From: an uncultured bacterium | GTDB lineage: Bacteria > Bacillota_I > Bacilli_A > RFN20 > CAG-826 | Reading direction: 5' to 3' | Length of the DNA: 64,000 nt | Assembly (NCBI GenBank): GCA_949293175.1 | Contig: CASFCI010000003.1 | Coordinates: forward strand, 78,899 to 142,898 | Shown here: positions 5,716 to 63,550 of the stretch, one piece after another | Numbering within the stretch: position 1 is the first letter of the stretch | Layout of the letters: every line of letters begins with the position of its first letter | The notes under the pieces: generated by a model | What the model was told of the DNA's origin: nothing | Databases searched by the model: none | The model's input: only the letters and a program-made list of their open reading frames with translations | Translations under genes and position numbers: made by a program

Positions 5716-5981
5716 ATTGGTGCCCTCACCCTTAGTCGAAAAGAGGTCTGATCCTTACCATGGATCCGTTCTACCGCTGAACTATGAGGGCGGCATCCGC
5801 TTCCTTTAGCGGCGTTGCCTATTATAAGGAGGAGCGATGGCGGCTGCAAGTGAATTCTTGCGCCGCGGCAATTCTTTCTCTCCCCAAGGCGACCCGCCTA
5901 GCCGAATCCGGCGCGGATTTTCCCGCCATTCGGGGCCCGACCATCTTCCTAAAAGCCGCGCCCGCGGTTATCATAGTCCCG

Positions 5982-6806: not shown

Positions 6807-6808
6807 AT

Positions 6809-33797: not shown

Positions 33798-33875
33798 TCG
33801 ACAAAGGCAAACCTAGAGCGATCTAGGGGCGCAAAACTACAGGGCCTCTCCGAGGCAGCCAGGTGCCACTAATCC
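33798..33875 (+). ncRNA. candidate c-di-GMP-I (GEMM-like) riboswitch aptamer, copy 2
   Basis: aaaGGCAAACC followed by hairpin TAGA-GCGA-TCTA (GNRA loop). Then GGGGCGCAAAACTACAGGGCC, hairpin GGCCTC-tcc-GAGGC, and AGCCAGG. 18 of 19 identical to copy 1 over GGCGCAAAACTA(A/C)AGGGCC. It overlaps the tracked GTG start at 33863, which argues for the ATG at 33887. Confidence 0.5.
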
Positions 33876-33886
33876 AAAGCAAGACT

Positions 33887-36625: not shown

Positions 36626-36631
36626 ACATCG

Positions 36632-37597: not shown

Positions 37598-38559
37598 GGA
37601 AGGGCAAGCTATTGACAAAACTGCTCGCCATGTCGGTCGCCCCATTGCTCTGCTTGGGATCTTTGGGCGTGGCCACCTACGCCTGGTTCACCGCCTCGAG
37701 GCGGGCCGAGCTAGGCGTCAACGAGATCAAGGTGAAGGCCCCGGAGTTCCCGGATACCTTCAGGCTATATGCCTATAACGGCAACTCCCCAAGCGGCTAC
37801 ACCGACTACGCCTACCTATCCGCGATCGGCGAGGCCGACCAAGCGGCGACCATAGGATCAGGCGTTTCCTTCTCCAGCCAATTCAGCGAAATAACCGGAT
37901 CGGAATACCGCCTGGAGAACCTCTTCCCGAAGTCCTGCTACCTCTTCGCGCTTTTCTTCGAGAAGGGCGAGGACTTCAATTCATTCTCGCTTAGCCTCAC
38001 CGCCTCTTGCTATGGCGAGGCCAGTGAAGGGACTGGCAAAGCGGTGCTCTACAACATAGAGGATGACGGCAGCGAGGGTCTCAACCACGGGCAGCAGATC
38101 GTGCTGGCCTCGGCCATCGACGTCTACACCAAGACGCTGCAGCTTTCCGATTCGGAATACACCGCGGACGACGGGGTTCTCCAGCTTAGCGACGCCAACT
38201 CGGAAGCCGCCAACGCCTTCATCACCACCGACATGGGCAGCGGCGACCCGACCCTGGGCCAGGTTACCGGTCGGCTGGTGGAGGACAGGTTCGACTACTT
38301 CCAGAACCGCGACGATGACGACACCTCGGCGATAACCCGGCAGGTGGTCGAGGAGACCGCGATGTCCACTTCGGCTTGCCTGGTCCTAATCCAAGTCGAG
38401 TTCTCCGACTTCCCGGAGACCCATATGTCGCCCCTCGACGAATCCGATCCGTCGTCTGGGGCCGATTATTGGGAATTCGACCCGTCATCAAGCCTATCGA
38501 CGCCCTACCAGGGGCTGCCGTTTTCCATCGAGGAACTGACTCTAAGGGGGAATAGATAA
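37594..38559 (+). CDS. secreted protein with SipW-cognate class signal peptide (TasA-like paralog)
   Basis: N-terminus ...LCLGSLGVATYAWFTASRRAELGVNEIKVKAP. 321 aa. ATGA-type overlap with the upstream gene. Confidence 0.65.
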   Translation: MRKGKLLTKLLAMSVAPLLCLGSLGVATYAWFTASRRAELGVNEIKVKAPEFPDTFRLYAYNGNSPSGYTDYAYLSAIGEADQAATIGSGVSFSSQFSEITGSEYRLENLFPKSCYLFALFFEKGEDFNSFSLSLTASCYGEASEGTGKAVLYNIEDDGSEGLNHGQQIVLASAIDVYTKTLQLSDSEYTADDGVLQLSDANSEAANAFITTDMGSGDPTLGQVTGRLVEDRFDYFQNRDDDDTSAITRQVVEETAMSTSACLVLIQVEFSDFPETHMSPLDESDPSSGADYWEFDPSSSLSTPYQGLPFSIEELTLRGNR

Positions 38560-47097: not shown

Positions 47098-47964
47098 TTA
47101 AATGATTCCTAGTATTGAAAATAGTTCAAATAGATTGGTGCCCAAATTATCGTAAAGGTCGGGGAAAGTCGTGGCGAAGCCTTTGGCCCGCTCCGCGCCT
47201 TTCTTGATGTTTGGATAGTATAGTTCCATGAACTTGGCGCTGGATATCCTCTTCGCGTGGTGAGCTGCCTCAGACAAAGCTTTGCTCACCGCCGTATGCT
47301 TATCGGATACGCGTCTATTCGCTTTGAAGCCCTCCATCTCCTGCTCGTTATAAGCACTTTTGACATCGCAGACATGAAGCAGGAGGAAAAACTCGAAGCA
47401 GGGATTCGACAAAAACACGCGGTGCCCTTCGCCTTCGCACCTTTCCACGCATCCTGAAAGGAGCTGTTTGGGCCTAGATTTCTCATCACGGTCGAGGACC
47501 ACGCAGAAATATGTGCCTTCTGATTTCAAATCCGACAAGTACTTGCGGTAATCAAGATCTATTCCGGCCTGAAGCAAGTCCGCTTTGAGCTCTTTTGCTT
47601 TTGTTGGATCGACGCTACTAGGCTTCTTCAAATAAGAATCTATGAATTCATAACCATATTTATTCAAAATCCAGGCGACAGATTCATCAACCGGAAACGG
47701 CCCATTCTTTCTAGCATCAACCGCTTCTTCCAAAAGTTCGATGACGTGCTCTGGATCGCTATATCCATCGCCTCGTCGATGCCTGAGCGTCTCGATTTTG
47801 ATGACGCTATTATCCAAGCAGCCATTTAACGAGTTGAAGTAATCCACCTCGGTTTGGCTTCCTTCAACCGAAAGGAAAACAAGCTTCTTAAGCTGCCGTT
47901 TTTCCGACTCGTCTTTTCTTTCGAATGCCGATGATGTAAGACGAAACTTGCTTTTCACGGCCAT
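47098..47964 (-). CDS. RloB-like protein (AbiLii-like)
   Basis: KLVFLSVEGSQTEVDYFNSL matches the RloB N-terminal box (ILIVCEGEKTEPNYF). AT-rich. It starts 3 nt downstream of the ATPase gene. Confidence 0.6.
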   Translation of the reverse strand: MAVKSKFRLTSSAFERKDESEKRQLKKLVFLSVEGSQTEVDYFNSLNGCLDNSVIKIETLRHRRGDGYSDPEHVIELLEEAVDARKNGPFPVDESVAWILNKYGYEFIDSYLKKPSSVDPTKAKELKADLLQAGIDLDYRKYLSDLKSEGTYFCVVLDRDEKSRPKQLLSGCVERCEGEGHRVFLSNPCFEFFLLLHVCDVKSAYNEQEMEGFKANRRVSDKHTAVSKALSEAAHHAKRISSAKFMELYYPNIKKGAERAKGFATTFPDLYDNLGTNLFELFSILGII

Positions 47965-47967
47965 AGG

Positions 47968-49317
47968 TCAGTTAGTGTCCGCCTTTTCATCGGAAAGGAA
48001 TTTTGGTTTAAAGTTAGGGACCGCCCCGTATCTGCCGAGCAGGTATTCCTTCTCAATCTTCTTGTCGAAGCGCTCATTGAAGGCGTTAAGGGAATAGAGT
48101 TCGCTGCTGCAATCCTTTTTCCTATTGATGAACCATATTTCATCCTGCCTTAGGAAATCCAAATCCAGCAGATTCGTGTCGTGCGTAGTGGCGATCAGCT
48201 GCGATTTGACGCCTTTTGATATTTCGAAAAACCGATCTATGAATTCCTTCGTGGCCTCGGTGTGGAGGCTACGGTCCAATTCGTCTATGACAATGACCGA
48301 TTCTTCTGTAGCATCCCTAAAAATTGGTATCAACGAGAACAGCCTTTTGGTTCCGTCTGATTCATCGCCGAACTCAAAAAGATCTGATGAGTTCCCGTGG
48401 TTCGTCATGATCACATAGGCATTTATCTGGCCGCCTTCTTTAACGAATTCATACAAAGAGGAGTCAAGTTGGCATAAATACGACTTCCTCCCATTTAACG
48501 CGGAGAGTATATGGTCTATAGATTTCCCTAATTTTGAGGCGATTTTGCCGAAATCGACCGGTTTTCTAGATAAGGATTTTATCCCAGTATCGAAATACGA
48601 TAGGAGGTTCTCGACCTTTGTCTTATTGTCGCGATTCTCCAAAAGCTCCTCGATGCCCACGTATTTGACGTTGGGGAACAGCACGTAAAGACGCGTAAAC
48701 CATCCGAAGACATCGGCGAATGCTTGATAGGAATGGTTATCTGAAGGCGCCCTGAAGGCGATGTCGCTTAAGAAGAATCTCTGCTCCATCTTGTTGGATA
48801 AGAAGTCTTCTTTGTAAAGTTGGAATCTCATTTTCTCTTTAGGGCTGGAAAAAGAGAGGTCGGAGCGGATGCGGCAGACCCACGGGGCCGGATAGCTGCG
48901 CAGGAAGATGCACTTCTCATCATCCTGTTTGTCGATGTTGTATAGCCATTCCTCGACAATCGATTGCGATTGGTACGAAATGGCAAAGCCATAGGAATAG
49001 AAATGTCCGTTGGCGAATATATCGAACTGAAAAACGCCGGGCTTATCTTTGCAAGCGTCGTCTAGGCGAAAATACTTTTTGAAAACGCTTATCCTATCCA
49101 AGCCATATAACACTAACTGACTAGCAACGAAAATCGCCTTGACGAAATTGGATTTGCCGCTGGCGTTGGGCCCAAACAAAACAGCGCTTTTGAGAACCCT
49201 TTTCCCGTTGCACGAGACGACGTGGTCTGAATGGCGGACTATCTTGCTGGCCATCATATTGAATTCCGTCATGTCCTTGAATGAGGCAAAATTCTCAACA
49301 GCGAACCTAATTAGCAT
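47968..49317 (-). CDS. AAA_15/AAA_21-type ATP-binding protein (AbiLi-like)
   Basis: N-terminus MLIRFAVENFASFKD...AVLFGPNASGKSNFVKAI (P-loop) and a C-terminal IVIDELDRSLH Walker B/D-loop. 449 aa. Confidence 0.7.
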   Translation of the reverse strand: MLIRFAVENFASFKDMTEFNMMASKIVRHSDHVVSCNGKRVLKSAVLFGPNASGKSNFVKAIFVASQLVLYGLDRISVFKKYFRLDDACKDKPGVFQFDIFANGHFYSYGFAISYQSQSIVEEWLYNIDKQDDEKCIFLRSYPAPWVCRIRSDLSFSSPKEKMRFQLYKEDFLSNKMEQRFFLSDIAFRAPSDNHSYQAFADVFGWFTRLYVLFPNVKYVGIEELLENRDNKTKVENLLSYFDTGIKSLSRKPVDFGKIASKLGKSIDHILSALNGRKSYLCQLDSSLYEFVKEGGQINAYVIMTNHGNSSDLFEFGDESDGTKRLFSLIPIFRDATEESVIVIDELDRSLHTEATKEFIDRFFEISKGVKSQLIATTHDTNLLDLDFLRQDEIWFINRKKDCSSELYSLNAFNERFDKKIEKEYLLGRYGAVPNFKPKFLSDEKADTN

Positions 49318-50730: not shown

Positions 50731-51321
50731 ATGCACATCACCGTCAGCGAGCAGGAAAGGCGATACCTATCATCGGTCGACCCGGACATGAAGCGGGCCT
50801 GCCGGATCATCGGGCCGATCGACCGCGAGATCGGAAGGACCTTGTTCGAGGGGATCGCACTGCAGATAGTCGCGCAGCAGATATCCAACGCCGCCTTCGC
50901 CTCCATAAGGGCGAGGCTGGGCGATGGGCTGCTATCAGCCGACAACGTCCTTGCATTGGGCAAGGCGACGCTCCGGTTCGCCGGGCTAAGCGAGGCCAAG
51001 GCGAATTGCCTGCTGGATGTCGCCGATAGGTTCAACCAAGGCTATTTCCGCGACCTTCCGCTTCTAGACGACGAGGCGGCTAGGCAGAAGCTCGTCGCCA
51101 TCAAGGGGATCGGCAGCTGGACCGCCGACATGGTGCTCATATTCGCCTTGGGAAGGAAGGATGTCTTCACCATCAAGGACGCCGGGATAAGGATTGGCCT
51201 GAGGAAGCTATATGGCTTCAAGACCATATCCGAGGCCAGGGCGGGGAAGCTTAGGAAAAAGTATTCTCCCTGCGCCACCGCGGCCTGCCTATTGCTTTGG
51301 GAAGCCGCCAAATGGGAATAA
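50731..51321 (+). CDS. HhH-GPD DNA glycosylase (AlkA/3-methyladenine glycosylase II-like)
   Basis: IKGIGSWTADMVLIFALGRKDVFTIKDAGIRIGL is a helix-hairpin-helix/GPD motif with the catalytic Asp. Confidence 0.7.
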   Translation: MHITVSEQERRYLSSVDPDMKRACRIIGPIDREIGRTLFEGIALQIVAQQISNAAFASIRARLGDGLLSADNVLALGKATLRFAGLSEAKANCLLDVADRFNQGYFRDLPLLDDEAARQKLVAIKGIGSWTADMVLIFALGRKDVFTIKDAGIRIGLRKLYGFKTISEARAGKLRKKYSPCATAACLLLWEAAKWE

Positions 51322-51323
51322 AA

Positions 51324-54293
51324 TCACTTTTTTATAACGCCTATTTCTGAAAAGGATTTTTCAAATAGTCTCAATCCGTTATCTTTGCTTGATTTCTCCA
51401 CTAATTTGTCGTCCCAGAAGCGGATAACCTTGATGTCGTTTGCATATTGAAAGTTTCTTACAACATTAGAAACGTTATACATATAGGTATCCGAAACGAA
51501 AGTGCTCTTTCTTACTAATTGCGATTTTTGATTTCGCTTAGCCGGAAAAGTCATTGAATAAAACTCGTTAATCACGTTTGAGCGCAAAAAGCGATCTAAT
51601 AAAGGGGGGCATTCTTCGGCGATAAGACTTCTAATAGAAGGATAAACTTCTTTATCAACAACTGAGACGGCATGATAAGGGATAAGTTTTCCGTCAAATG
51701 GGTTGAAGTAAAGATGATTGAAGAAATCGATATCTATTATGCAACCGTGAATCGTTCCGTATCCGCCAAACGATTTTACCCATTCAGATATTTTCTTTTG
51801 CTTTTCAAAATATGGCCCAAAATAAAGAGATATGCTCCTTTGAATTATTTCAAGTTTATCAAAAAAATATGTCAGAGGATGGCTTGGCACATTGCGAATC
51901 GCCCCACCGTTAAGTAATCTCAGTTCGCCTTTTTGGTTCGTCATCATGAAAAGGTGAACGCCAGACCGCTTTATCAAGTATAGTTTTTGATAATCCTGAA
52001 AGAAATCCATAGATATGGACATTCCTTGGCAAAAAGTCAGATAGTCCTCCCGACTTATCTCGTATATTCCGTCAGAATATGTATCAAACCAATTAGATTT
52101 CTTGTTTAAATAGAAGTACTTAAATTGTACTTTGCGTGGCCCGTATCCAACTTGATTGTCGGCAATTACTCTAGATTGCCCATTATCAAAATAAAACTGG
52201 CGATGATCGTGGCCGTGTACATAGACAACTCCAGGATCCATATCTTTCTTCTCGATAAAATCGAAAGTTGGAATATGCGTAACGACAACAAGGTTTCTAC
52301 CTCTCTCTGCAATGGCGACTTTTTTGTACAAATCATGAAAAGCTTGAATTGCGTTAGAATGATCATTATTCCCAAACAAAGATCCATATCCTCCAAATAT
52401 GACAAGCTTTGAACCCCTTGTCATGCCGCGCAATTCTTCCGTGCTAAGAGAAATCAGTTTCGTGGTTGGAATATTTTGAATTAATCCATTTTCAGAAATG
52501 TAATAAAGTTCATTCTCAACAAGATAAATACCGTTTTTTTCTGCCTCCGCTCGATGTTTTTCGATAGATTGAGAAATTGAAACTATAGGCTTGGACATAA
52601 GCAATTCATGATTGCCTAAAACAAGGAAAGTTTTTCCTTTGCACTTATATTTTCCCAATGCCTTTAAGAATATTTTGAAATCATCGAATGGGGCGGCAAT
52701 GTCTCCAGCAATAAGATTAATGTCATAGCTAGAACTTGAAGAAAGAGATGATGCAGTCTCGTAAGCGACTCTCGTCTTATCTCCAATGCTTTTGCATTTC
52801 TTGTCAAAAAACTTATTTGTAATATGTATATCGCTGATATATCCAACGCATATTTCTTCGTTTGAATAATCAAATTTTTCGGAAGGAGGTAATTCTTCGT
52901 GAACTATATTATTTGGCAATTTCTCGTTTTCCTCTGAGTCTTTGCTACGATTAAGGCTTTCTTCCAAAACCTCGCTTGGTTCAAACGACAAACCAAGGGC
53001 TATAGAAGAGCTCGTTGTCATCTCCGCCCCTTCTAAGTTTAGGGATTTGACATCGGTAAGCCTTTCCAAACCGTCACATAAAACCAAATCTGCTTTTGAC
53101 AAATCGCCTTTGAGAAAGTGAGCAAAATCACAGAAATAAGAAAATTTAAACTGGTGTCTATATACTTCTTCCCCCGATGAGTTAATCCAGCACAAAGTTA
53201 CAACAAAGTTTTCCCCATTGTATTCTTTCTCTACCTTTCGTTTTAGTTTGAGAGAAAGCAATGGCATGATGGTAGAGTTATCAGTCTCGCATTTTGATAT
53301 ATCCGAAGAAAGAATTGGAAGTTTTGAAAGATCTAGACCTTTCAAATTATATTTTAAAAATTTTGACAAACATTCGAAATCGAAAAAGTCAAAATTTATG
53401 AAAATATTTGTGTTTTTCCATATTATTCTGCCGAAGAATCTATATAATCCAGTTTTACGATCGAGATCTATATTCCGATCTTCAGCCGCTTTGGATAGTA
53501 TAGCTTTAATAAATCTACGGTACTTGTTTTTCAAATATTCCGATAACTTCAACTCTTTGATTAAATTTAATAATTCTGAAGAATATCTCGCTCCAAACAG
53601 GTATGCCAGCTCTTCGAATGCAATTCCTTTTTCTCCACATTTAGCTAAGCTATTAGCACGGCAACACTGAATAAGCGGAATGGCCAACCCGTCACCATAT
53701 TTCTCGTAAAGCATGCCTAGAGGCGAAAAAACATTGCCAATGCTGAAATATGAGTGAATGATTTCAAGTAGCCTTTTTTCGCTTGGAACGTCATGCGGCA
53801 AATTTTCATACCAGCTTTGCGCTTTCTTAGGTATGTAATAAGGGCTTGACTTATCAGCCGATAAAATGGAATCAAGACTTATGCTATCTATATCGTAATC
53901 AATATAGGAATCAAAATTCATTTTTCGGATATCAGCCTTGCATTTTTTAATTTGTGCGGGTTGAATTGTCATTCCGAAATAACACGCATCTTCGTAAATG
54001 TTCCCTTTAAAATATTTTAAAAAAGCGTTAAATTCCGTGAAAGTAGATATCTTAAATTGGACATCTAGCGGTGAAGAAAAATCATAATTCTCAAAGAAAA
54101 ACTTTCCTTTGAGCACATCATATCCCATCCTTCCAACAAAAATATCGTTTTTCCAAGATGAGTTCTGTATAAATTGTGCTACTTCGTGCCGAGAAGCGTA
54201 ATCCAAATCTTCAAAATGATTATTTAATCCAGTAATCATTTTTATATATTTGGATAATTTGCAAATGCGTTGCCGACGGCCAAGTCCTAACAT
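51324..54293 (-). CDS. 989-aa orphan protein with central calcineurin-like metallophosphoesterase domain and pentapeptide-repeat-like region (candidate defense/nuclease)
   Basis: AT-rich. The metallophosphoesterase motifs are GYISDIHIT, IAGDIAAPFDDF, LGNHELL, VVVTHIP and VHGHDH. An upstream block resembles pentapeptide repeats (KADLVLCDGLERLTDVKSLNLEGAEM). The N- and C-terminal regions are unassignable. Confidence 0.55.
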   Translation of the reverse strand: MLGLGRRQRICKLSKYIKMITGLNNHFEDLDYASRHEVAQFIQNSSWKNDIFVGRMGYDVLKGKFFFENYDFSSPLDVQFKISTFTEFNAFLKYFKGNIYEDACYFGMTIQPAQIKKCKADIRKMNFDSYIDYDIDSISLDSILSADKSSPYYIPKKAQSWYENLPHDVPSEKRLLEIIHSYFSIGNVFSPLGMLYEKYGDGLAIPLIQCCRANSLAKCGEKGIAFEELAYLFGARYSSELLNLIKELKLSEYLKNKYRRFIKAILSKAAEDRNIDLDRKTGLYRFFGRIIWKNTNIFINFDFFDFECLSKFLKYNLKGLDLSKLPILSSDISKCETDNSTIMPLLSLKLKRKVEKEYNGENFVVTLCWINSSGEEVYRHQFKFSYFCDFAHFLKGDLSKADLVLCDGLERLTDVKSLNLEGAEMTTSSSIALGLSFEPSEVLEESLNRSKDSEENEKLPNNIVHEELPPSEKFDYSNEEICVGYISDIHITNKFFDKKCKSIGDKTRVAYETASSLSSSSSYDINLIAGDIAAPFDDFKIFLKALGKYKCKGKTFLVLGNHELLMSKPIVSISQSIEKHRAEAEKNGIYLVENELYYISENGLIQNIPTTKLISLSTEELRGMTRGSKLVIFGGYGSLFGNNDHSNAIQAFHDLYKKVAIAERGRNLVVVTHIPTFDFIEKKDMDPGVVYVHGHDHRQFYFDNGQSRVIADNQVGYGPRKVQFKYFYLNKKSNWFDTYSDGIYEISREDYLTFCQGMSISMDFFQDYQKLYLIKRSGVHLFMMTNQKGELRLLNGGAIRNVPSHPLTYFFDKLEIIQRSISLYFGPYFEKQKKISEWVKSFGGYGTIHGCIIDIDFFNHLYFNPFDGKLIPYHAVSVVDKEVYPSIRSLIAEECPPLLDRFLRSNVINEFYSMTFPAKRNQKSQLVRKSTFVSDTYMYNVSNVVRNFQYANDIKVIRFWDDKLVEKSSKDNGLRLFEKSFSEIGVIKK

Positions 54294-54321
54294 ATTGAGA
54301 TTTTAGCAAACCATATATAAT

Positions 54322-54356
54322 CTTTAAACTCAAAACCCTCCTTGGAAGGAGGGGCA
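54322..54356 (-). terminator. rho-independent terminator of the aldo/keto reductase gene
   Basis: CCCTCCTTggAAGGAGGG hairpin with a T-run on the minus strand. Confidence 0.6.
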
Positions 54357-54375
54357 AAGATGGCCTTAGCTTTTT

Positions 54376-55149
54376 CTAATACAATAAGTCGAACACCTCG
54401 TCGGCGCTTAGGTCGAGGTCGGCGGGGATGTTCTCCCGCAGATGCTCTTCCGAGGTCGCCTTGCATATCGGGGTGGTCCCGATCTGGGCGAGGAAGCTCA
54501 TGGCTAAGGTGGTGAGGGGAACGCCGTGCTCCTTGGCCATCTTCTGCAGGCCCTCGTCGCTTAGCAGCTTCCCATGACCCAAGGGGCTATAGGCCTCGAT
54601 CTTGATCCCCTTTCCCTTGCAGAACTCTAGCAGGTCGCTATCGACGTTGTGGGCGTGGCAGCAGATCTGGTTCACGTAGGGCTTGATCGAGCAATGGGCG
54701 AGGATGTTCTCTAGATCGGCAATCGAGAAGTTCGAGACGCCGATGTGGGCGACCTTTCCCTCCCTCACCGCCTCTTCCATGGCCTTATAGACCTCGAGGT
54801 TCTCCTGGTGGAAATCGCCGCGGTTGGGGTCGTACATAATCGCCCAGGGCGCCGGGGCGTGGATAAGCAATAGGTCGATGTAGGGGGTGTCTAGCTTCCT
54901 AAGCGACTCCTCGATGCTCTTCTTGGCCTCGTCGTAGCTCTTTATCTCGGCGGCGACTTTGGTCGATAGGAAGACGCTTCCCCTATCGAGGCCCTTGATG
55001 GCCTTCCCCAGTGCCTCCTCGTTATCGTAGGCCTGGGCGCAGTCGAAAAGGCGGTACCCCAGCTTATAGGCGGTGGGGATGGCGGAGAGGACGTCCTCGT
55101 CCTTCATCATCCAAGTCCCCAGTCCGAATCTTGGCAGATCCATATTCAC
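54376..55149 (-). CDS. aldo/keto reductase
   Basis: LGTWMM, the catalytic tetrad region and the C-terminal IPKS-like motif, as in 2,5-diketo-D-gluconate reductase-type AKRs. Confidence 0.75.
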   Translation of the reverse strand: MNMDLPRFGLGTWMMKDEDVLSAIPTAYKLGYRLFDCAQAYDNEEALGKAIKGLDRGSVFLSTKVAAEIKSYDEAKKSIEESLRKLDTPYIDLLLIHAPAPWAIMYDPNRGDFHQENLEVYKAMEEAVREGKVAHIGVSNFSIADLENILAHCSIKPYVNQICCHAHNVDSDLLEFCKGKGIKIEAYSPLGHGKLLSDEGLQKMAKEHGVPLTTLAMSFLAQIGTTPICKATSEEHLRENIPADLDLSADEVFDLLY

Positions 55150-56339
55150 TTGCCCTCCAGCAGCTTAAGCTCGGGGCTAAGTCTAAATGCGGAAGCAAGC
55201 GATATCAAGACGCATTCGTCCTCGCCGCGGAAGACGGTGGTCTGCGGGCTGCGGCGGAACAGCCGGTAGAGGATGCCATCCCCCTTGGCTTTCTCCTCCT
55301 CGATGAGCTTCGCCATGGCGGAGTAGGCCGCCTCCTTGGGGCGAAGCAATTCGTCGGTCGGGGTCTTGGCCTTCGACAGCAGGTGCTCCAGCGGGAGCAG
55401 CAGCAATTGCTCCGGGGTTGGCCGGTGCAGCCCCTTGGCGTCGGCGGCGTCCATCAGCCACTTGACCGCCTTCCGCATGTCATCCTCCTCCATGGAGAGG
55501 ACGGACCGCTTGAAGCTCTCGGCGGCCCGCTTGACGTCCTTGCTCAAAAACGAGTAATCGAAGCCGATGTAGTCGCCGTATTCCTTCTTCGCGTCGGCGT
55601 AGCCCTGGTTCATGTTGGCTATTATGACCTCGGGGGTGAAGTCCATTATCGAGCCAAGCGACTTCGAGGGGGTTATGAGCTTGACGTTGGGCAGCCTAAG
55701 CAGCTCGGAGTGCTGCGGGGTGAACGAGAGCATGTTCATGTCGACGCAGACTATCTCGTCGGCCCCCATCGAGATGGCGTAGTCGATCGGGACGTTGTTC
55801 TTGTAGAACCCGTCGATGTACATGCTGCCAGCGACGGTCTCGATCGGGAAGATCGGCACGCAGGCGCTTGAGGCGTGCAGGAAGGGGAGGATGTCCTCCT
55901 CCCTGGCCTTGTTCAGCTCGACCCGGGTTTCCTTTAGCCCGGGGAAGGAGACCGTGACGATGCCAAGCCTCACCTTCGATTCCTTGATCCGCTTGGGGTC
56001 GATGTATTTGGCGCACAGCTGCTTGAACGGGGTGATGTCGGCCCCGCGCGACTTGACGTAGGACAAAAGGAAGGACAGCGACCCGGCGATGTCGAAGCTG
56101 GTTATGGCGTCCTTGTTGAAGTTCATCCCGTCCTTCATGACCTTGTCCGGGGTGATCTCGAGCCAGAGGGTGCGCAGCTTCTCGTAGTCGCCGGTGCATA
56201 GCAAGGCCCCGTTTAGCGCGCCAATAGAGGTCCCGGTGATGATGTCGAACCGCTCGCCTTTCTCCAGCAGGCACTTCACCGCGCCGACCTGATAGGCGCC
56301 AAGGCTCCCGCCTCCGGCTAGGACCAGCGCCTTGCTCAT
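55146..56339 (-). CDS. patatin-like phospholipase
   Basis: LVLAGGGSLGAYQVGAV (oxyanion GGGxxG) and GTSIGALNGAL (GxSxG nucleophile). 397 aa. Confidence 0.75.
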   Translation of the reverse strand: MSKALVLAGGGSLGAYQVGAVKCLLEKGERFDIITGTSIGALNGALLCTGDYEKLRTLWLEITPDKVMKDGMNFNKDAITSFDIAGSLSFLLSYVKSRGADITPFKQLCAKYIDPKRIKESKVRLGIVTVSFPGLKETRVELNKAREEDILPFLHASSACVPIFPIETVAGSMYIDGFYKNNVPIDYAISMGADEIVCVDMNMLSFTPQHSELLRLPNVKLITPSKSLGSIMDFTPEVIIANMNQGYADAKKEYGDYIGFDYSFLSKDVKRAAESFKRSVLSMEEDDMRKAVKWLMDAADAKGLHRPTPEQLLLLPLEHLLSKAKTPTDELLRPKEAAYSAMAKLIEEEKAKGDGILYRLFRRSPQTTVFRGEDECVLISLASAFRLSPELKLLEGK

Positions 56340-57184
56340 ATCTTGAACCCCCGGGACTGCTGCAGCTTGTTGAAGAAGATGGCGGCGGTGATGGAGATGT
56401 TGCTCTTCTTCCGCTCCTCTATCTCGTCCCTAATCCAGCGCTGCCCCGCTTCCTTTATCTTCGATAATGTCATCTGGGATAGCACCTTCTGCCCGAACTC
56501 GCGGCCATAGTCATAGGATATATCGAGCATCCGGTTGATGTTCCTCAGGTCGAAGGAATAGGTCTTGATCGAGTTGCCGCAGCGGGTCCCGACGTCGATG
56601 TCGATGACCACCGTGTCGGAATTGACGATCTCCGCCGGGGGCAGGTAGCGCGGGTAGTTGTGCAGTATGAGCAATAGGTCGACGTGCTTGATGAGGAAGG
56701 GATAGACCGGGATGTTGTCGGTCGCCCCGCCGTCGAGGTAGAACTTCTTCCCGTACCGGCGGTATACCCCATTGACGAAGGGGAAGGTCAAGGTGATGTT
56801 CATCGCCTCGTAAAGCTCGTCCTTGGGTTTGGAGGAATCGAGGTAGAAGTAATGCGTCGAGAGGGTGTTGAGGCAGGTCCCGGTCACATATAGCGGGATG
56901 TCGACCCGACCGCCCTTTATCAAGGAATCAATGACCTGGTCGACCAGCTTGTTCTTAAGATTGAGCCGAAGGTTGGATATCGAGGTGATGTTGGTGTGGC
57001 GGTATATCTGCTCGCCATAATCGAGCCGGTCGGCGCTTAGCGCCAAGCCAGTCAAAGCGCCGGAAGAGGAGCAGGAGAGCAGCTTTATGTCGGAGCGGTT
57101 CAAAAACGGCAGCATCCCCCTGAGGAACCCAAGCTGGGCCGCGCCCCGGGCGAACCCGCCGCCGAATACGATGCCGATGTCCAT
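56336..57184 (-). CDS. patatin-like phospholipase (second copy)
   Basis: IVFGGGFARGAAQLG and CSSSGALTG (GxSxG). A 4-nt overlap with the downstream patatin gene. Confidence 0.7.
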   Translation of the reverse strand: MDIGIVFGGGFARGAAQLGFLRGMLPFLNRSDIKLLSCSSSGALTGLALSADRLDYGEQIYRHTNITSISNLRLNLKNKLVDQVIDSLIKGGRVDIPLYVTGTCLNTLSTHYFYLDSSKPKDELYEAMNITLTFPFVNGVYRRYGKKFYLDGGATDNIPVYPFLIKHVDLLLILHNYPRYLPPAEIVNSDTVVIDIDVGTRCGNSIKTYSFDLRNINRMLDISYDYGREFGQKVLSQMTLSKIKEAGQRWIRDEIEERKKSNISITAAIFFNKLQQSRGFKI

Positions 57185-57188
57185 TGCC

Positions 57189-58052
57189 CTACCCCTTGGT
57201 GGCGAAGCGGCTCTTCATCCTTAGCGAGGAGAATATGCCGGCGTTGATTGCGCAAAGCAGGTTGAGCGCGAAGCAGACGTAGATGATTATGCAGCTGTTC
57301 TCGTCTATAGACAGCCCGCATTGGGGGATGAAGGTCATGATGAATAAAACCGCGGAGCAGACCAATAGGATCAAGACGTAGAAGAAGGTCGAGAATACGT
57401 TGAAGTTCTTTATGGCGATGTAGCGGGCGAGGCCGAAGAGGAAAAGCAGGCTCAGGAAAACCGGGGCGATGTATCCGAAGCAAAGCGAATACGAGCTCAT
57501 TCCGAAAAGCGGGAAATACGGCGGGTATCCACCAGCCCCGATGGCACTCACCTGCGTCCCTTCCGGGGACATCCTGACCCAGCTTGGATAGGAGAACATC
57601 AGGATCAGCATGAAGGCCAAGCCAAAGCCGAATGCCTTAAGGAAAAGCAAGCGGTTGCTGTTTTGCCTCGGCGCGATGGCCTCGTTTATCAAGAACAAGG
57701 CCCCGAAAAGCGAAAGGAAGGCCCATGGGGATAGGTGGTAGTTATGGCGCGGCCCCAGGAAGACCAAGGCGATGTCGATTATGCAGATAAGGGCGAAGAG
57801 GTTGGCGATGATGATGCTGATGAGCTGCCTGGTCGAGATCTCGGCCCAGCGGAGCATGAACCGCTTCTCATCAAGCGGGGCAGGCTTGGAAAAAGGCGTG
57901 CCGCAATAAGGGCACTTGTCCTCCACGCCTTTGGTTATGAAGCCGCATTTGTGACAATACATTGACATTCGAATTTTACTACAAGAAAAACCGCCTGCAA
58001 CAGGCGGTTTTACATTTTTCCTAACGTCAACCGATATGGGCGTTTTTGGCAA
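57189..58052 (-). CDS. zinc-ribbon-containing membrane protein
   Basis: The N-terminus carries CHKCGF...CPYCGTPF (C4 ribbon), followed by six TM helices. Confidence 0.45.
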   Translation of the reverse strand: MPKTPISVDVRKNVKPPVAGGFSCSKIRMSMYCHKCGFITKGVEDKCPYCGTPFSKPAPLDEKRFMLRWAEISTRQLISIIIANLFALICIIDIALVFLGPRHNYHLSPWAFLSLFGALFLINEAIAPRQNSNRLLFLKAFGFGLAFMLILMFSYPSWVRMSPEGTQVSAIGAGGYPPYFPLFGMSSYSLCFGYIAPVFLSLLFLFGLARYIAIKNFNVFSTFFYVLILLVCSAVLFIMTFIPQCGLSIDENSCIIIYVCFALNLLCAINAGIFSSLRMKSRFATKG

Positions 58053-58665
58053 CCCAATCGACCATGTGGGTCATGGCCCAGAAGGTGTAGATGCCGAGGG
58101 TGATTATCGACAGTATCCACCAGACTATCCAGTGCCCGAGCAAGCCGAGGCCGGATCCGCCGAAGCTGACCTTCTCCCCGCCGATGACCATGCGCTCGAC
58201 GACATAGGTGATGACCAGGTTGAGGCCAACCGGGAACAGCAAGCCGAGGGTGAAGACGGTGATTAGATCCATGGCGAGCAGGTGGACGAAGAGCATGAAC
58301 GCCCCGCCTTCCCAGCTGCCTTTGCCGGTGCCGCCCTCGATGCTGATGTGGGAAGTGACCCACTGAATGACCTTTTTCGGCAAGAAGAACATGTAGATGC
58401 CGAGGGTGACGATGCAAAGAAGCAGCCACACGATCCATTTGCCGATTAGCTGTCCACCCGTGCCGTCGAAGCTAAGGGTGCGTCCATCGACTTTGGTTTT
58501 GCCCAAGATGTAGCGGATCTGAGCGCATAGGACCCATGGATATCCGATTCCAAGGGTGATGATGGTGAGCAGCGACCAAAGGATGCAGTGTCCTAGCAAT
58601 CCAAGGCCGGTGCCGGTGTAGCCTCCCTTTTCCTTGACGGGGGCTGCGTTGACAACGTCTGCCAT
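58027..58665 (-). CDS. DUF898/YjgN-like membrane protein
   Basis: Two internal repeats of G(L/T)GLGLLGHxI(L/V)W(S/W)xL(T/S)IITLGIY...W, characteristic of DUF898. Confidence 0.55.
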   Translation of the reverse strand: MADVVNAAPVKEKGGYTGTGLGLLGHCILWSLLTIITLGIGYPWVLCAQIRYILGKTKVDGRTLSFDGTGGQLIGKWIVWLLLCIVTLGIYMFFLPKKVIQWVTSHISIEGGTGKGSWEGGAFMLFVHLLAMDLITVFTLGLLFPVGLNLVITYVVERMVIGGEKVSFGGSGLGLLGHWIVWWILSIITLGIYTFWAMTHMVDWVAKNAHIG

Positions 58666-58890: not shown

Positions 58891-59379
58891 TTGAGTTATA
58901 TGACTTTGACTATAGGAATGGGCGAAGATGAGCGCGGGAAAAGCCGCGGATCGTTTTCTTCTCCTTTTGGGAATATTGCCATCGAAAGCGAAGATGGGTT
59001 CATAACGGCCGTCTACTTCGACGATGAAGAGTACGGCGGAACCAGCAAGGCCATAGACAAAGCCAAGGCTTGGCTAGAGGAATACTTCCTCGGACGTAAT
59101 CCGAAGATGGATATCGGATTGATGCTCAAAGGGACGGAGTTCCAGCTGAGGGTATGGGAAGAGCTTATGAGCATCCCATATGGCACGACCATAACCTATG
59201 GGGAATTGGCCAGGCGGATCGGCTCCCATCCCCATCCGGTCGGGCAGGCAATGAAGAGGAACAGGATAATGCTATTGCTCCCTTGCCACCGCGTTGTGGC
59301 TAGCAATGGCTTAGGCGGGTATGCCGGAAGGGAATACAATAAGCTTAGGCTGCTGCAGCTCGAAGGATCGCTTAGATAG
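58891..59379 (+). CDS. ogt: methylated-DNA--protein-cysteine methyltransferase
   Basis: GTEFQLRVWEELMSIPYGTTITYGELA and the active-site PCHRVV. Confidence 0.85.
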   Translation: MSYMTLTIGMGEDERGKSRGSFSSPFGNIAIESEDGFITAVYFDDEEYGGTSKAIDKAKAWLEEYFLGRNPKMDIGLMLKGTEFQLRVWEELMSIPYGTTITYGELARRIGSHPHPVGQAMKRNRIMLLLPCHRVVASNGLGGYAGREYNKLRLLQLEGSLR

Positions 59380-59433
59380 CAAATAATAAAATGCTTTGCT
59401 TTATTATTAGGCTATATATTTTATTTGATATCG

Positions 59434-60315
59434 TTAAAGACGATTCTTTTTCGCCGATTGGGTGATGGTTGAGTGATAGAAATAGTTGATGATTATAGGC
59501 TTGCCGGTCGCGTTCCTTAGGAATGGCTCCTCGTCTATTACATACTCGAACCCGTTTTCCTTAGCATAGCCATCGACCGCCTTATCAAGCTCCTTCCAAT
59601 AGGTCAGGTCTCCTTTTGAATAGATGCGCGAATAAAGCTCATCCAGCTCAGGGCGATGGGAATGGATGTAGTCGATTATCGTCTTTTTGAAGCCGCCGCG
59701 TAGGTTAAGGTTCTCTAGCCAGATATAGTCACAGCAGTCCTTGATTCTATTTATTATGCTTAGGACATCGGTTATGCCTGGGAATATAGGCGAGATGAAG
59801 CAGGTGGTCCTTATGCCGGCTTCATGGCATTTCCTCATCGCCTCAATCCTTCTTTCGATGCTTGGGGTACGTTCCATGTCGCTTTTGAAGGATTCGTCTA
59901 GCGTATTGATAGACCAGGATATCAGCGGATCGGGGAAGGTCTTTATCAAATCTATGTCGCGGGTCACTAGGTCGGACTTGATGGTGATTATTAGATGTAT
60001 CTTGGCTCCCTGCATCTGGGCGAGAAACGCCCTTGTCCTTTCGTATTTTATCTCCTGCGGTATATACCCGTCGGTCACCGAGCCAACTATGAAAGTCGAG
60101 CCATCATAGCGATTGGGATGAGTGATTGGCGGCCACATCTTCACGTCGATGAACTCGCCCCATGGCTCAGTGTGGCCAGTGAACCGCTTCATGAAGCAGG
60201 CGTAGCAGTATTTGCAGGCGTGGCTGCAGCCGACATAGGGGTTGACCGAGTATCCGGCGATGGGAAGGTTGGACTTGGTCAAAACGCTTTTGACTTGTAT
60301 TTGCTTGATGATCAT
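59434..60315 (-). CDS. radical-SAM DNA repair photolyase family protein (SplB-like)
   Basis: NPYVGCSHACKYCYA (CxxxCxxC) and the overall COG1533-like layout. 293 aa. Confidence 0.65.
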   Translation of the reverse strand: MIIKQIQVKSVLTKSNLPIAGYSVNPYVGCSHACKYCYACFMKRFTGHTEPWGEFIDVKMWPPITHPNRYDGSTFIVGSVTDGYIPQEIKYERTRAFLAQMQGAKIHLIITIKSDLVTRDIDLIKTFPDPLISWSINTLDESFKSDMERTPSIERRIEAMRKCHEAGIRTTCFISPIFPGITDVLSIINRIKDCCDYIWLENLNLRGGFKKTIIDYIHSHRPELDELYSRIYSKGDLTYWKELDKAVDGYAKENGFEYVIDEEPFLRNATGKPIIINYFYHSTITQSAKKNRL

Positions 60316-60605
60316 AGATTGTCCTCCGCCTCCTCTAGGTTATGCAGGATCCTCTGCAGGCAATTCTCAAAATCGGCAATCTCGTCCTCGGAGAAGCCGC
60401 GGTAGTAGATTGAGCAGACTTCTTCGCTGACGGAGTCATATTCGCCCTTGAGCATTCTGGCCTTGTCGGTTAGCTGCACGAGCAATATGCGGTGGTCATC
60501 CTCGGATTGCCTTAAATCGACCAGCCCTTCGTCCTTCATATGTTTGACCATGGCAGAAACACTGTTTTGACTAATCTCATAAATTTGCTTTCGTTGACTA
60601 AGCAT
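60312..60605 (-). CDS. MarR-family winged-helix regulator, N-terminally short (possibly truncated)
   Basis: ISQNSVSAMVKHMKDEGLVDLRQSEDDHRILLVQLTDKARML is the MarR recognition helix plus wing. Only 97 aa, and the upstream sequence is AT-rich non-coding. ATGA-coupled to the splB-like gene. Confidence 0.5.
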   Translation of the reverse strand: MLSQRKQIYEISQNSVSAMVKHMKDEGLVDLRQSEDDHRILLVQLTDKARMLKGEYDSVSEEVCSIYYRGFSEDEIADFENCLQRILHNLEEAEDNL

Positions 60606-60806: not shown

Positions 60807-62495
60807 TCAATCTGATTGAATTTCAAAGCCCAACATCTCATTAATCTCGGACTCGTTCTTTTCGAATTCTTTGCGGCAAAGAAGCCTTGGAGCCGCGCGA
60901 TCACCGTCATCAAATTTGTCAAAGTCAATAAGATTATATCTAGGTAAATTCACACCACACTTAGCTATTCTGTTTAAACAATCAATAGAAAACACGAAGC
61001 TTTGAGGATAACGATCAATATTGGCAATTCTTTCAAAAATAGATTTAAACGAACAAATTAAATTAGACTCGTTCATATCCAAATTTGGAAAATCGAAAAT
61101 AACTGGCATATTAATCGTTTCGTCTTTTGTATCTAGAAAAGCCAAAAACTTGGAAATCGCAAATCTAGGAACTTCACTGCCGGAAAGTTTGAAATTTTTA
61201 TTTATTGCTATTTTTTCTACTGGGATATCATCCAAATGTATGTTGGTCTCCCTTGCTAATTTAATAAAGTTGGCCTTGTATTTAGAATCAGCTTCCTTTT
61301 TAAGACTTGTATATTTGGCCATCATTTTGGACTGTTCCTTCAGCCTTCGCTTTATCCACTCAATTTTCTCAATTATTGGCGAATAATCGCGTTGGGCCTC
61401 TAGAAGTTGCTGATTCCATACAATCACCGCCCTAGAAATATCAATGTTTTTTCGCTGCGCATCAATTTTTATAATTTCGCTTGCAAGTTTTTCCGATTTT
61501 TCAATTTTAAGATCGAGCGCGCGCTTAGAATCGAGCAGGCTTGAGTTTAAATCGGACAACTCTCTTGAAACATCACTATTACAAATAGAAACCTGTAATG
61601 CCCTTTCTAAAAATCCGGTTATATCATTATTGCAAAAAGGACATTTGATATCTTCCTCATGTAGAAGCCTATTAGAAAAAGCTATGTTGTCTTCTAATGT
61701 TTTCTTCAAAAGAGCAATTTGACGATTTAATGTTTCTATCCGCTTCCTAATGCTATAAATTTCTAAGTTAAGCGAACTCATTCTTTTATATTTAGCTATA
61801 TCAGAATCAAGTTCTTTATCAAAATTAACAATTGCCGCGCTTTTATTTTCGTCCAGTTTTCTTGTTAAATAATCAATTTCGCTTTTTTTGCTTTCAGATT
61901 CTTTCTCAAAATTATCGAGTTCGATATTTAGTTTCGTTTTTTCTTCCACTAAATTAGTATAATTCGGATCCAAAACGCCTATATGATAGTAAAAAGTTTC
62001 GTAAATATCGTTTTTAGAATACATCCCCAAATCCGTGAAGAATTCTTTGTCACTCAGAAAACTGATTTGGGGAAGATAGTATGGCAAAAGGTATATTGAA
62101 GGAATCGCCGTAGAATAATTGTCCGATTCTTTGTCCTTAATTTTTATTGTAAATCCTAATAATTCATAAAGCTTATCAGAATATCCTCGCCTCTGCGTAG
62201 AGAAGAAAAACGATTTGTTTTCGTGTTGTATAAGATATGAGTTATTGTGACGAATTACTATGATTGGGGTATCGTTCTTAAGTATTGTCAGTTTTGTGTA
62301 TATATTCTTCAAATCCCATTTGTCGCTAAAAGCGACTTTCGCTCCAAAGGCATATGCCATAAACATCGATAAAGATGTTTTTCCAACGCTGTTTTGTAAC
62401 GAAGTAATAATATTAATCCCCTTATCAAAAATAACCTTTCTTGCAGATTGCTCGCTCTTGTCGTAAATCAATATCTCTTTAAACAAAATGCTCAT
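60807..62495 (-). CDS. SMC/Rad50-like ATPase with central CxxC zinc-hook (LmuB-like, Lamassu)
   Basis: N-terminal P-loop (GINIITSLQNSVGKTS), long coiled-coil, central CPFCNND hook and C-terminal MPVIFDFPNLDMNESN (Walker B/D-loop). The ATG at 62495 forms an ATGA overlap with the upstream gene (the tracked start at 62513 is TTG). AT-rich. Confidence 0.6.
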   Translation of the reverse strand: MSILFKEILIYDKSEQSARKVIFDKGINIITSLQNSVGKTSLSMFMAYAFGAKVAFSDKWDLKNIYTKLTILKNDTPIIVIRHNNSYLIQHENKSFFFSTQRRGYSDKLYELLGFTIKIKDKESDNYSTAIPSIYLLPYYLPQISFLSDKEFFTDLGMYSKNDIYETFYYHIGVLDPNYTNLVEEKTKLNIELDNFEKESESKKSEIDYLTRKLDENKSAAIVNFDKELDSDIAKYKRMSSLNLEIYSIRKRIETLNRQIALLKKTLEDNIAFSNRLLHEEDIKCPFCNNDITGFLERALQVSICNSDVSRELSDLNSSLLDSKRALDLKIEKSEKLASEIIKIDAQRKNIDISRAVIVWNQQLLEAQRDYSPIIEKIEWIKRRLKEQSKMMAKYTSLKKEADSKYKANFIKLARETNIHLDDIPVEKIAINKNFKLSGSEVPRFAISKFLAFLDTKDETINMPVIFDFPNLDMNESNLICSFKSIFERIANIDRYPQSFVFSIDCLNRIAKCGVNLPRYNLIDFDKFDDGDRAAPRLLCRKEFEKNESEINEMLGFEIQSD

Positions 62496-63550
62496 ATTTC
62501 TTCCCCAGACCAATCATAAGCCACTACGATTACTATAAGTTGCACTATTGGCTTTGGATAATAAGATAAAATATGTAGGCATTTTTCGGTTGTCCTGCGC
62601 ACCGCATCTTCTGTTGTTGAGCATTCCGATGCGATTGTTTTATATGATTCTCTAACCGTTTTAAGAGCCTTTGGGTAAACTTCGTCTGTTAAATTGCGCC
62701 TGCAAGACACAAATTCGCTATAGTAACTTTCTATATCGATGCATTCTCTCGGTGTAAATATTCTATGGGCATGGTTTAGAATCTCGCGTTTTGTCAAGCC
62801 ACACCTTTGTTTTGCGTCATTAATCAATTTTTTAATATCAATAGTCTTAATTCCCTTTTTATCGATGGCTTCATCTTCGTCAACTTCACTAGTCTTGAAT
62901 TTATGAATTCTTTTTTTCTCAAAAATCAATTTTAATGCCGACAGAATCGTTCTTGGATTTATAGAATCACAGTCGTCACCAACACAATGATAAATTACAT
63001 CATTTGTTTTGCCGGTGAGCGTTTCTATATACCTGCTTTCCGTGGAAGAAAACGGTAATGACGATCTTATGTAAACTAATTTGCCAACATAAGTATCAAG
63101 GTTTGGCATTTCCTTATTTTTACTTTTTAGAAATTCGGAAACATTCTCCTTGACCCTTTGCAATTCGTTTTCGTCGAATTTATCGCAAAAATAAAATTTA
63201 TCAAGGCATTCTGTTCTCTTACCCTTAAAATTAGCGTTGCAGATTATGTTCAATGTTTTGGCTTTTGAATTTGCGTATATATCACTCAAAACTATTTTTC
63301 CGAGAGCGTGGTCTTCAAATAGCGCATTTTTATCGTACAATCCGCCACCTTTAGTTTTTACTTGATATACTTCCAACTCTTCGTTTTGCTCATGAAAATT
63401 GTAATAAATAGCGAAATCTTCTATGGTTTCCAGCACAACTATTGCATCACAATCAATATTTGAGAGTAAATAATCAATAGCGACAGCCATTTGATAATCA
63501 AATCCACGGCTTGCATCAGTACCAGATTGTTCCCTAATTTTGATTTTCAT
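62492..63550 (-). CDS. Cap4/DUF4297-like nuclease-domain protein (LmuA-like, Lamassu effector)
   Basis: N-terminal SRGFDYQMAVAIDYLLS hallmark, then D...VVLE...YQVKTK (PD-(D/E)xK-like). 352 aa, AT-rich, ATGA-coupled to the ATPase. Confidence 0.5.
   Translation of the reverse strand: MKIKIREQSGTDASRGFDYQMAVAIDYLLSNIDCDAIVVLETIEDFAIYYNFHEQNEELEVYQVKTKGGGLYDKNALFEDHALGKIVLSDIYANSKAKTLNIICNANFKGKRTECLDKFYFCDKFDENELQRVKENVSEFLKSKNKEMPNLDTYVGKLVYIRSSLPFSSTESRYIETLTGKTNDVIYHCVGDDCDSINPRTILSALKLIFEKKRIHKFKTSEVDEDEAIDKKGIKTIDIKKLINDAKQRCGLTKREILNHAHRIFTPRECIDIESYYSEFVSCRRNLTDEVYPKALKTVRESYKTIASECSTTEDAVRRTTEKCLHILSYYPKPIVQLIVIVVAYDWSGEEI

Follow-up and report, generated by a model that had tools for sequence, protein, structure and literature searches.

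The DNA analysed here, called the window throughout, is a stretch of 64,000 nucleotides from an uncultured bacterium of the lineage Bacillota_I, Bacilli_A, RFN20, CAG-826 (contig CASFCI010000003.1, positions 78,899 to 142,898 of the forward strand). On its minus strand it carries a gene for a protein of 989 amino acids (aa) with a calcineurin-like metallophosphoesterase (MPE) domain, flanked by two parts that match no known family. This MPE gene lies alone inside a low-GC insert, belongs to a large family known chiefly from Bacillota of the gut and rumen, and is considered below as a candidate immune effector. The gene and its insert are laid out as follows.

51324..54293, minus strand: open reading frame (ORF) of the MPE family, stop codon included; 989 aa, ATG start (ORF list and translation)
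51322..54388: low-GC inserted segment of about 3.07 kb with the MPE gene alone inside (composition, breakpoint of the related-strain contig L101, stop-to-stop gap and boundary-repeat scan)
54294..54388, minus strand: upstream end of the insert, about 95 bp, with a terminator-like hairpin and a promoter-like site (pattern scan)

Composition and borders of the insert

The GC content of the MPE gene is 0.36 overall and 0.35-0.40 along its length, while both flanks lie at 0.58-0.62, and GC at third codon positions is 0.34 in the MPE gene, 0.83 in the aldo-keto reductase (AKR) gene and 0.79 in the HhH-GPD glycosylase gene. The latter two, which the initial annotation had already named as neighbours, flank the insert with native GC, the HhH-GPD gene at 50731-51321 on the plus strand and the AKR gene at 54376-55149 on the minus strand. 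The low-GC segment extends from the HhH-GPD stop codon to about 12 bp within the 3' end of the AKR gene, and the stop codons of the MPE and HhH-GPD genes are separated by 2 bp. At the upstream end, a terminator-like hairpin (54353-54336) follows the AKR stop codon, and a promoter-like site at 54328-54300 has the form TTTAAA-17-TAAAAT with a TG extension, the regional count of such sites being not above chance. No direct or inverted repeats were found at the boundaries of the insert and no integrase within the segment, and nothing meaningful emerged from the search for tandem repeats and RNA families around it.

A contig from a related strain, L101, is 96.3% identical to the window over 4.3 kb and diverges at window position 54388, so that the site downstream of the AKR gene is strain-variable. 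After the break, 12 bp before the AKR stop codon, L101 continues for 88 bp (4306-4393) without match in the window and then ends; L101 was the only close relative in an empty-site search with the AKR gene, and it shows strain variability and not the empty site itself. A 99%-identical copy of the gene product (P0001) is present at the same locus in two other assemblies. The window gene differs from the 99%-identical copies by 21 nucleotides, with 9 synonymous and 11 non-synonymous changes, which are too few for a firm selection test. All in all, the MPE gene is a horizontally acquired single-gene cassette, as the initial description of one large AT-rich ORF inserted between its neighbours had implied.

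Domain architecture of the MPE protein

The protein is divided into four parts, given here from the C-terminus, which is the lower coordinate on this strand, to the N-terminus.

51327..52130, minus strand: conserved C-terminal domain, residues 722-989 (alignments, AF2 domain model)
52131..52859, minus strand: calcineurin-like MPE domain, residues 479-721 (Pfam, conservation, Foldseek, hhalign)
52860..52958, minus strand: acidic linker, predicted to be disordered, residues 446-478 (pLDDT below 50 at residues 442-477)
52959..54293, minus strand: N-terminal region, residues 1-445, containing a helical insert of low conservation (residues 113-267) besides three repeat modules
53049..53252, minus strand: repeat module 3, residues 348-415, ending in FLKGDLSKADLVLCDGL, the "pentapeptide-like" stretch (AF2, hhalign)
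53298..53492, minus strand: repeat module 2, residues 268-332 (hhalign to modules 1 and 3)
53958..54152, minus strand: repeat module 1, residues 48-112, beta-beta-beta-alpha followed by F..F..YL.G[DN]I (AF2 secondary structure, hhalign)

The catalytic domain is recognised by Pfam Metallophos (PF00149) at residues 485-698 with 36.1 bits (E=1.2e-8), as against a gathering cut-off of 21.5, and the same match is present in 41 of 50 family members. All five metal-binding motifs (D488-x-H490, G530-D531, G560-N561-H562-E563, H673 and G694-H695-D-H697) are in place and are invariant or at least 90% conserved in an alignment of 125 relatives, from which conservation was taken; they are followed by a family-specific invariant D712-N-Q-x-G716. 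Judged from these motifs, which had all been pointed out beforehand, the predicted dinuclear-metal catalytic site is complete and under strong conservation. A model of the full protein was built with AF2 from an 8-sequence alignment (pLDDT 74.9) and compared with the PDB by Foldseek, which aligned about 250-300 columns, corresponding to the MPE domain only, with probability 1.00. The matches include Mre11 of M. jannaschii (E=5e-6), PptH of M. tuberculosis (6e-5), LpxH (4e-4) and CD73 (5e-4), and the viral library returned generic MPEs only.

The motif set had been described as being of Mre11/SbcD type. The motifs are generic for the superfamily, and the tests specific for Mre11/SbcD failed. 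In particular, hhalign aligned the family profile with E. coli CpdA at 59.8% over 186 columns, comprising the whole MPE domain, whereas E. coli SbcD reached 31.2% over 76 columns that comprise motifs I-III only; the values for E. coli ApaH, LpxH and UshA were 9%, 2% and 0.2%, respectively. No NCBIfam model matches at E<=1, the Pfam matches of the MPE domain are to the generic Metallophos and Metallophos_2 only, and the PDB sequence search returned PptH as sole match (E=0.048). A 5_nucleotid_C domain of the UshA/CD73 type gave no Pfam match in the C-terminal domain of 24 members (E<=10), a Mre11-type capping domain was not found (the Mre11 alignments cover about 250 columns, and the C-terminal domain has a best PDB E of 0.15), and a SbcC/Rad50 partner with an SMC-type ATPase is neither encoded in the window nor conserved in 95 loci of relatives. 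The Mre11/SbcD label is unsupported because CpdA scores above SbcD in hhalign, no NCBIfam model matches and no SbcC partner is found. As far as sequence comparison can tell, the MPE domain carries the generic motif set of its superfamily and has no assignment to a characterised subfamily. Since CpdA aligns over the whole MPE domain and SbcD over motifs I-III only, the comparison leans slightly towards a nucleotide or a small phosphodiester as substrate, in preference to DNA ends. The likeness to class III phosphodiesterases of the CpdA/Icc type lies in this alignment, the best over the whole catalytic domain, and the likeness to PptH in the PDB sequence match and the second-best fold match; CpdA and PptH are, however, single-domain enzymes of about 270-310 aa without N- or C-terminal extensions, and the similarity is weak and sub-threshold.

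The C-terminal domain, of about 270 aa, is as conserved as the catalytic domain and is coupled to it in all relatives. Its invariant or near-invariant residues are K725, K775, G796-G797, the stretch G843-G844-x-G846-x-I-H849-G850-x-I-x-D854-x-D856-x-x-N859-H860, P865 and K881. Across 24 members no Pfam signal was obtained even at E<=10, and in the window protein the domain has no match in NCBIfam, PADLOC and PDB sequences either. Modelled alone with AF2 from 24 sequences, the domain reached a pLDDT of 87.8 and a pTM of 0.82. The Foldseek comparison that had been suggested for each part of the protein thus matched the MPE fold in the full model and found no PDB fold match for the modelled C-terminal domain, whose best hit had E=0.15 and a probability of 0.06. 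Readings of the C-terminal motifs as protein-kinase-like, Pol-beta nucleotidyltransferase-like, HAD-like, HNH-like or ligase (KxxG) were unsupported by Pfam, PDB profiles and Foldseek; in the putative KxxG motif, G778 is not conserved. Proteins that consist of the C-terminal domain alone are mostly contig-end fragments or pieces of frameshifted full-length genes, so they give no convincing sign of its transfer to other effectors. The sole case with no detectable MPE remnant nearby is a 241-aa ORF (L123, 8001-8726), and L123 comes from the same sequencing project as the contig near-identical to the window.

The N-terminal region of about 445 aa has no match in Pfam, NCBIfam, PADLOC or PDB sequences, in agreement with the initial view that the two terminal parts of the protein have no recognisable family. 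Its three modules share a common end, F..F..[FY]L.G[DN][IL]...[AC]DL, which forms a turn. By profile comparison they are true internal repeats, because hhalign paired modules 2 and 3 at 97.5% (E=6e-12), 1 and 2 at 91.9% and 1 and 3 at 81.7%, as against 0.1-0.3% for control pairings of modules with the helical insert. The stretch that had been taken for pentapeptide repeats is the short G-D-L-S-x-A-D-L turn that closes each module; the Pfam Pentapeptide profile (PF00805) does not match at E<=1, and pattern matches are isolated, such as ADLVL at residue 401. Mean pairwise identity is 0.29 in the N-terminal region and 0.21 in its helical insert, in comparison with 0.42 in the MPE domain and 0.42-0.45 in the C-terminal domain. 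Moreover, relatives of about 570-600 aa are without the N-terminal repeats and those of about 800 aa without part of them, and all retain the MPE and C-terminal domains. Judging from these relatives, the repeat array is the variable, dispensable and least conserved part of the protein. By-eye reading of the N-terminus found no signal peptide or membrane segment. Only one of 125 members contains a Walker A pattern, and no NACHT, AAA or other NTPase match was obtained with Pfam in the protein or in 50 relatives.

Distribution and genomic neighbourhoods of the family

The protein had been called an orphan, and a word-indexed search at first agreed, returning 8 proteins for the whole sequence and 5 for the 8-sequence alignment. 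These low numbers reflect the limited sensitivity of that method, and the reading was overturned by an exhaustive profile search and a genome scan. The profile search covered 1.84 billion representatives of clusters formed at 50% identity and returned 1881 of them at E<=1e-3, among which 1010 reached E<=1e-30; nearly all of the best 150 matches are proteins of about 1000 aa in which the whole profile is covered. The genome scan, with one genome per species, found 201 relatives in 185,579 species genomes. The best 80 of the 201 were examined for taxonomy and identity: nearly all are from gut or rumen Bacillota (Lachnospiraceae, other Clostridia, Bacilli, Erysipelotrichaceae and Mollicutes), at 27-37% identity to the window protein. 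Closer relatives, beside P0001, are only P0002 and P0003, with 45% identity in the word-indexed search. The distribution is sporadic, as the 201 occurrences in 185,579 species genomes indicate, and it reaches the window host, whose GC content is about 58%. The 50,697 sequenced phage genomes contain no match to the family, and nine relatives were found on IMG/VR contigs with integrases, invertases and methylases nearby. The family is large, uncharacterised and mobile, and lives mainly in gut and rumen Bacillota. It appears to be undescribed in the libraries searched, and to join a known type of effector to two domains without known relatives.

The neighbourhoods were analysed in 95 non-redundant loci, in which genes were called and neighbours within five genes clustered. 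No partner gene is conserved. The largest neighbour cluster, a generic ABC-type ATPase that is a transporter subunit and forms the only recurrent ATPase cluster, is present in 10 of the 95 loci and at variable positions; next in size are the clusters of a large serine recombinase, in 9 loci, and of a tyrosine integrase, in 5. Pfam assigned the 150 immediate neighbours to 141 families, among which helix-turn-helix (HTH) regulators recur five times, NERD three times, and GmrSD_N, N6_Mtase, AAA_21, rve, TnpV, FRG and DUF4379 twice each. PADLOC recognised among them mad2, mad3, mad8, HEC-05, AbiLi (twice), AriA and a type I methylase. In one locus, the MPE gene stands between a NERD gene and a run of genes for a Bpu10I restriction enzyme, a methylase and a SLFN-like helicase; in another it follows HipBA, Fic and GmrSD, and in a third it is followed by AIPR. 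A copy on a Limosilactobacillus reuteri plasmid is surrounded by IS30, integrases, an Eco57I-type restriction-modification gene and MazF. The difference in composition is not restricted to the window, as across 83 homologous loci the MPE gene averages 10 GC points under its flanks and lies more than 8 points below them in 48. Signs of a housekeeping family with conserved synteny, which would have counted against the initial interpretation, were sought without success. The MPE gene is therefore autonomous, sporadic and horizontally transferred, and is often located beside genes for defence and mobility.

Further observations concern particular loci. A subclade from Lachnospiraceae (L057, L059, L069, L072, L076 and L084; also L079 and L081) shares a small element with the order 231-aa gene of unknown function, MPE gene, unknown gene of about 100 aa, HTH_3 regulator and large serine recombinase. 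Very large proteins with DUF4379, a treble-clef zinc finger, adjoin MPE homologues or lie near them (L001 10232-13039; L005 501-2603), and in P0275 an MPE C-terminal domain is joined to the start of a DUF4379 protein, which may represent a loose association or read-through. Directly downstream of the MPE homologue in L005, a gene for 669 aa (5926-7935) has a weak match to HATPase_c_3, a GHKL ATPase family (E=1.5e-4). Full-length homologues broken by frameshifts into two to four ORFs, through possible gene decay or an assembly artefact, are found at L115 4321-6630, L122 5975-9029 and L124 5600-8627. One such frameshifted homologue product, P0274, occurs on 133 contigs.

A similar situation is present in the window itself, where two systems recognised by PADLOC lie on either side of the MPE gene.

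47098-49317, minus strand: AbiL system (AbiLi and AbiLii), low GC (about 0.45), 2 kb from the MPE gene
60807-63550, minus strand: Lamassu system (LmuA and LmuB), very low GC (about 0.33), 6.5 kb from the MPE gene

The 449-aa AbiLi belongs to the AAA_21 ATPases (PADLOC E=1e-81), and the 288-aa AbiLii is RloB-like (E=6e-17); LmuA contains a Cap4-nuclease domain in 352 aa, and LmuB has 568 aa (PADLOC E=4e-58). AbiL and Lamassu are among several low-GC insertions in the 30 kb around the MPE gene. The gene is thus located in a part of the chromosome into which foreign defence cassettes have entered more than once.

The low-GC region at Lamassu continues to the end of the window. On the other side, at 33863-38559 on the plus strand, a block with GC of 0.42-0.48, also one of the insertions around the MPE gene, comes after an EAL-domain gene and a PNP_UDP_1 phosphorylase gene. 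Its three ORFs (920, 321 and 321 aa) run in the same direction and match neither Pfam nor PADLOC, the 920-aa protein has no PDB sequence match either, and together they possibly form one more foreign system of unknown kind. Next to the AKR gene, on its upstream side, a minus-strand region of native GC (55146-58665) contains two tandem genes for patatin-like phospholipases (397 and 282 aa), a 287-aa ORF without family and a gene for a DUF898/DUF6693 protein; for the first of the two patatins, PADLOC gave a weak match to its "Effector phospholipase" models (E~1e-6). At 58891-60605 an Ogt-like O6-methylguanine methyltransferase gene on the plus strand is followed, at GC of about 0.47, by minus-strand genes for a radical-SAM protein (293 aa) and a small MarR-like regulator (97 aa).

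A candidate immune effector and its alternatives

Metallophosphatases are part of two anti-phage systems that allow a comparison. DS-8, identified by DefensePredictor, is a one-protein system that combines a metallophosphatase with NACHT and requires its catalytic residues for defence, and DS-9 is a validated system of metallophosphatase and HAD whose catalytic residues are essential (PMC13092281). The latter is the same as PUA-Cal-HAD and probably as Metis (doi 10.64898/2026.01.15.699771; 10.1101/2025.11.05.686725), in which a Calcineurin-CE effector depletes nucleotides, deoxynucleoside triphosphates among them, converting deoxynucleoside diphosphates to monophosphates (dNDP to dNMP) and cleaving NAD+ in vitro (doi 10.64898/2026.01.15.699771). 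By domain content, the window family would be related to both in kind, with another architecture. Like DS-8, it is a single large protein with a metallophosphatase domain, which is the effector in DS-8 and shows there that an MPE can act as the module for killing or arrest in a system of one gene; DS-8, however, carries a NACHT NTPase, whereas the window family is without a P-loop and has three beta-rich N-terminal modules and a C-terminal domain of its own. PUA-Cal-HAD likewise combines a calcineurin-like phosphoesterase with an N-terminal sensor, a role that is only proposed for the N-terminus of the window family, but it consists of two genes, has a sensor of PUA-like type and cannot do without its HAD phosphatase. 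Pfam found neither PUA nor HAD in the window protein or in 50 relatives, and HAD is absent from the top neighbour families.

Genomic context points to the MPE protein as a self-contained candidate immune effector against phages or other mobile elements, a proposal to which we give slightly less than an even chance. The initial annotation had suggested a standalone anti-phage or nucleotide-targeting phosphoesterase. This suggestion stands as far as context goes, through the missing partner, the neighbours with roles in defence and mobility and the low GC, and it receives no support from the PADLOC comparison that was meant to check it, as none of the families in PADLOC-DB v2.0.0 matches the window protein at E<=1.

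The fuller proposal, which we hold more tentatively, is that of a new and widespread one-gene anti-phage family of gut Firmicutes, with the window protein as its founding example, in which an array of three hitherto undescribed beta-beta-beta-alpha modules would sense infection and the MPE domain, together with a C-terminal domain of novel fold, would destroy nucleotides or nucleic acid. In such a mechanism, the N-terminal array would sense a cue of infection or hold the enzyme inhibited, and the C-terminal domain would bind a substrate or ligand or drive oligomerisation; its invariant K...GGxGxIHGxIIDxDxxNH cluster could constitute another site for nucleotide binding or catalysis. On activation, the MPE domain would hydrolyse phosphodiester or phosphoanhydride bonds, either in nucleic acid or in nucleotides such as deoxynucleoside triphosphates (dNTPs), NAD+ or cyclic nucleotides, so that phage replication would be halted or infection would become abortive. 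Nucleotide depletion by PUA-Cal-HAD would be the template for the nucleotide-targeting version.

Several observations, in addition to the PADLOC result, weigh against an immune role. The association with defence neighbours is qualitative and without a matched background control, and the 150 immediate neighbours come for the most part from unrelated families. Several copies are frameshifted and several lie in ordinary chromosomal surroundings. The catalytic fold is about as close to PptH, LpxH and CD73, which are non-immune, and the roles proposed for the N- and C-terminal domains derive from conservation patterns only.

Among the other explanations, it is unlikely, though worth serious consideration, that the protein is cargo in the service of mobile elements, for example in counter-defence, by degrading immune signals that are nucleotides, or as a weapon or exclusion factor between competing elements. 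The integrases and invertases beside the nine IMG/VR relatives, the Lachnospiraceae element with its HTH regulator and large serine recombinase and the plasmid copy would all suit such cargo. MPE enzymes are able to cleave cyclic nucleotides, the best profile similarity of the family is to CpdA, and one report describes a phage phosphoesterase that evades immunity (PMC12287305). The window copy, however, stands alone as a chromosomal insert without genes of an element in its surroundings, and the sequenced phage genomes contain no relative. Positions in prophages and among element cargo are typical of defence genes too; this context, therefore, does not discriminate. To our knowledge, a length of about 1000 aa and a sensor-like variable N-terminus are unusual among the known signal-degrading anti-defence enzymes.

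It is very unlikely that the protein is instead an accessory metabolic or envelope phosphatase or phosphodiesterase outside genetic conflict, such as a hydrolase of lipids or cofactors resembling LpxH or PptH. The similarity to these two enzymes in structure and sequence and the homologues in ordinary chromosomal neighbourhoods would be expected of such an enzyme, but synteny is not conserved across the 95 loci, relatives are few for the number of species genomes scanned, the gene is AT-rich with respect to its flanks in most hosts and recurs beside recombinases and defence genes, and the N-terminus, read by eye, offers neither signal peptide nor membrane segment.

Finally, although M. jannaschii Mre11 heads the Foldseek matches and shares superfamily fold and metal-binding motifs with the family, and although HhH-GPD glycosylase and O6-methylguanine methyltransferase genes are among the flanking genes, a solo Mre11/SbcD-like nuclease that processes DNA ends in repair is highly improbable: the repair genes, to which the MPE gene had been linked, lie at native GC on the two sides of a foreign insert, PptH, LpxH and CD73 score within two orders of magnitude of Mre11, the profile alignment with SbcD is partial (31%, motifs I-III) and that with CpdA covers the whole domain (60%), there is no NCBIfam match and no SbcC/Rad50-type partner in the window or the 95 loci, the C-terminal domain is of another kind, and a core gene of repair would not be expected to occur so sporadically.

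With regard to the candidate immune effector, metallophosphatases have only recently entered the validated anti-phage repertoire, with DS-8 and DS-9/PUA-Cal-HAD/Metis. The MPE family adds at least about 1000 clusters at 50% identity, concentrated in Clostridia and Bacilli of the human and animal gut, where defence systems have been little explored experimentally, and as a one-gene system it is easy to test. The window shows the transfer of such a cassette from low-GC Firmicutes into a high-GC genome, beside insertions of AbiL and Lamassu. If the family is defensive, it would provide bacterial immunity with a new type of sensor and, possibly, a new enzymatic domain.

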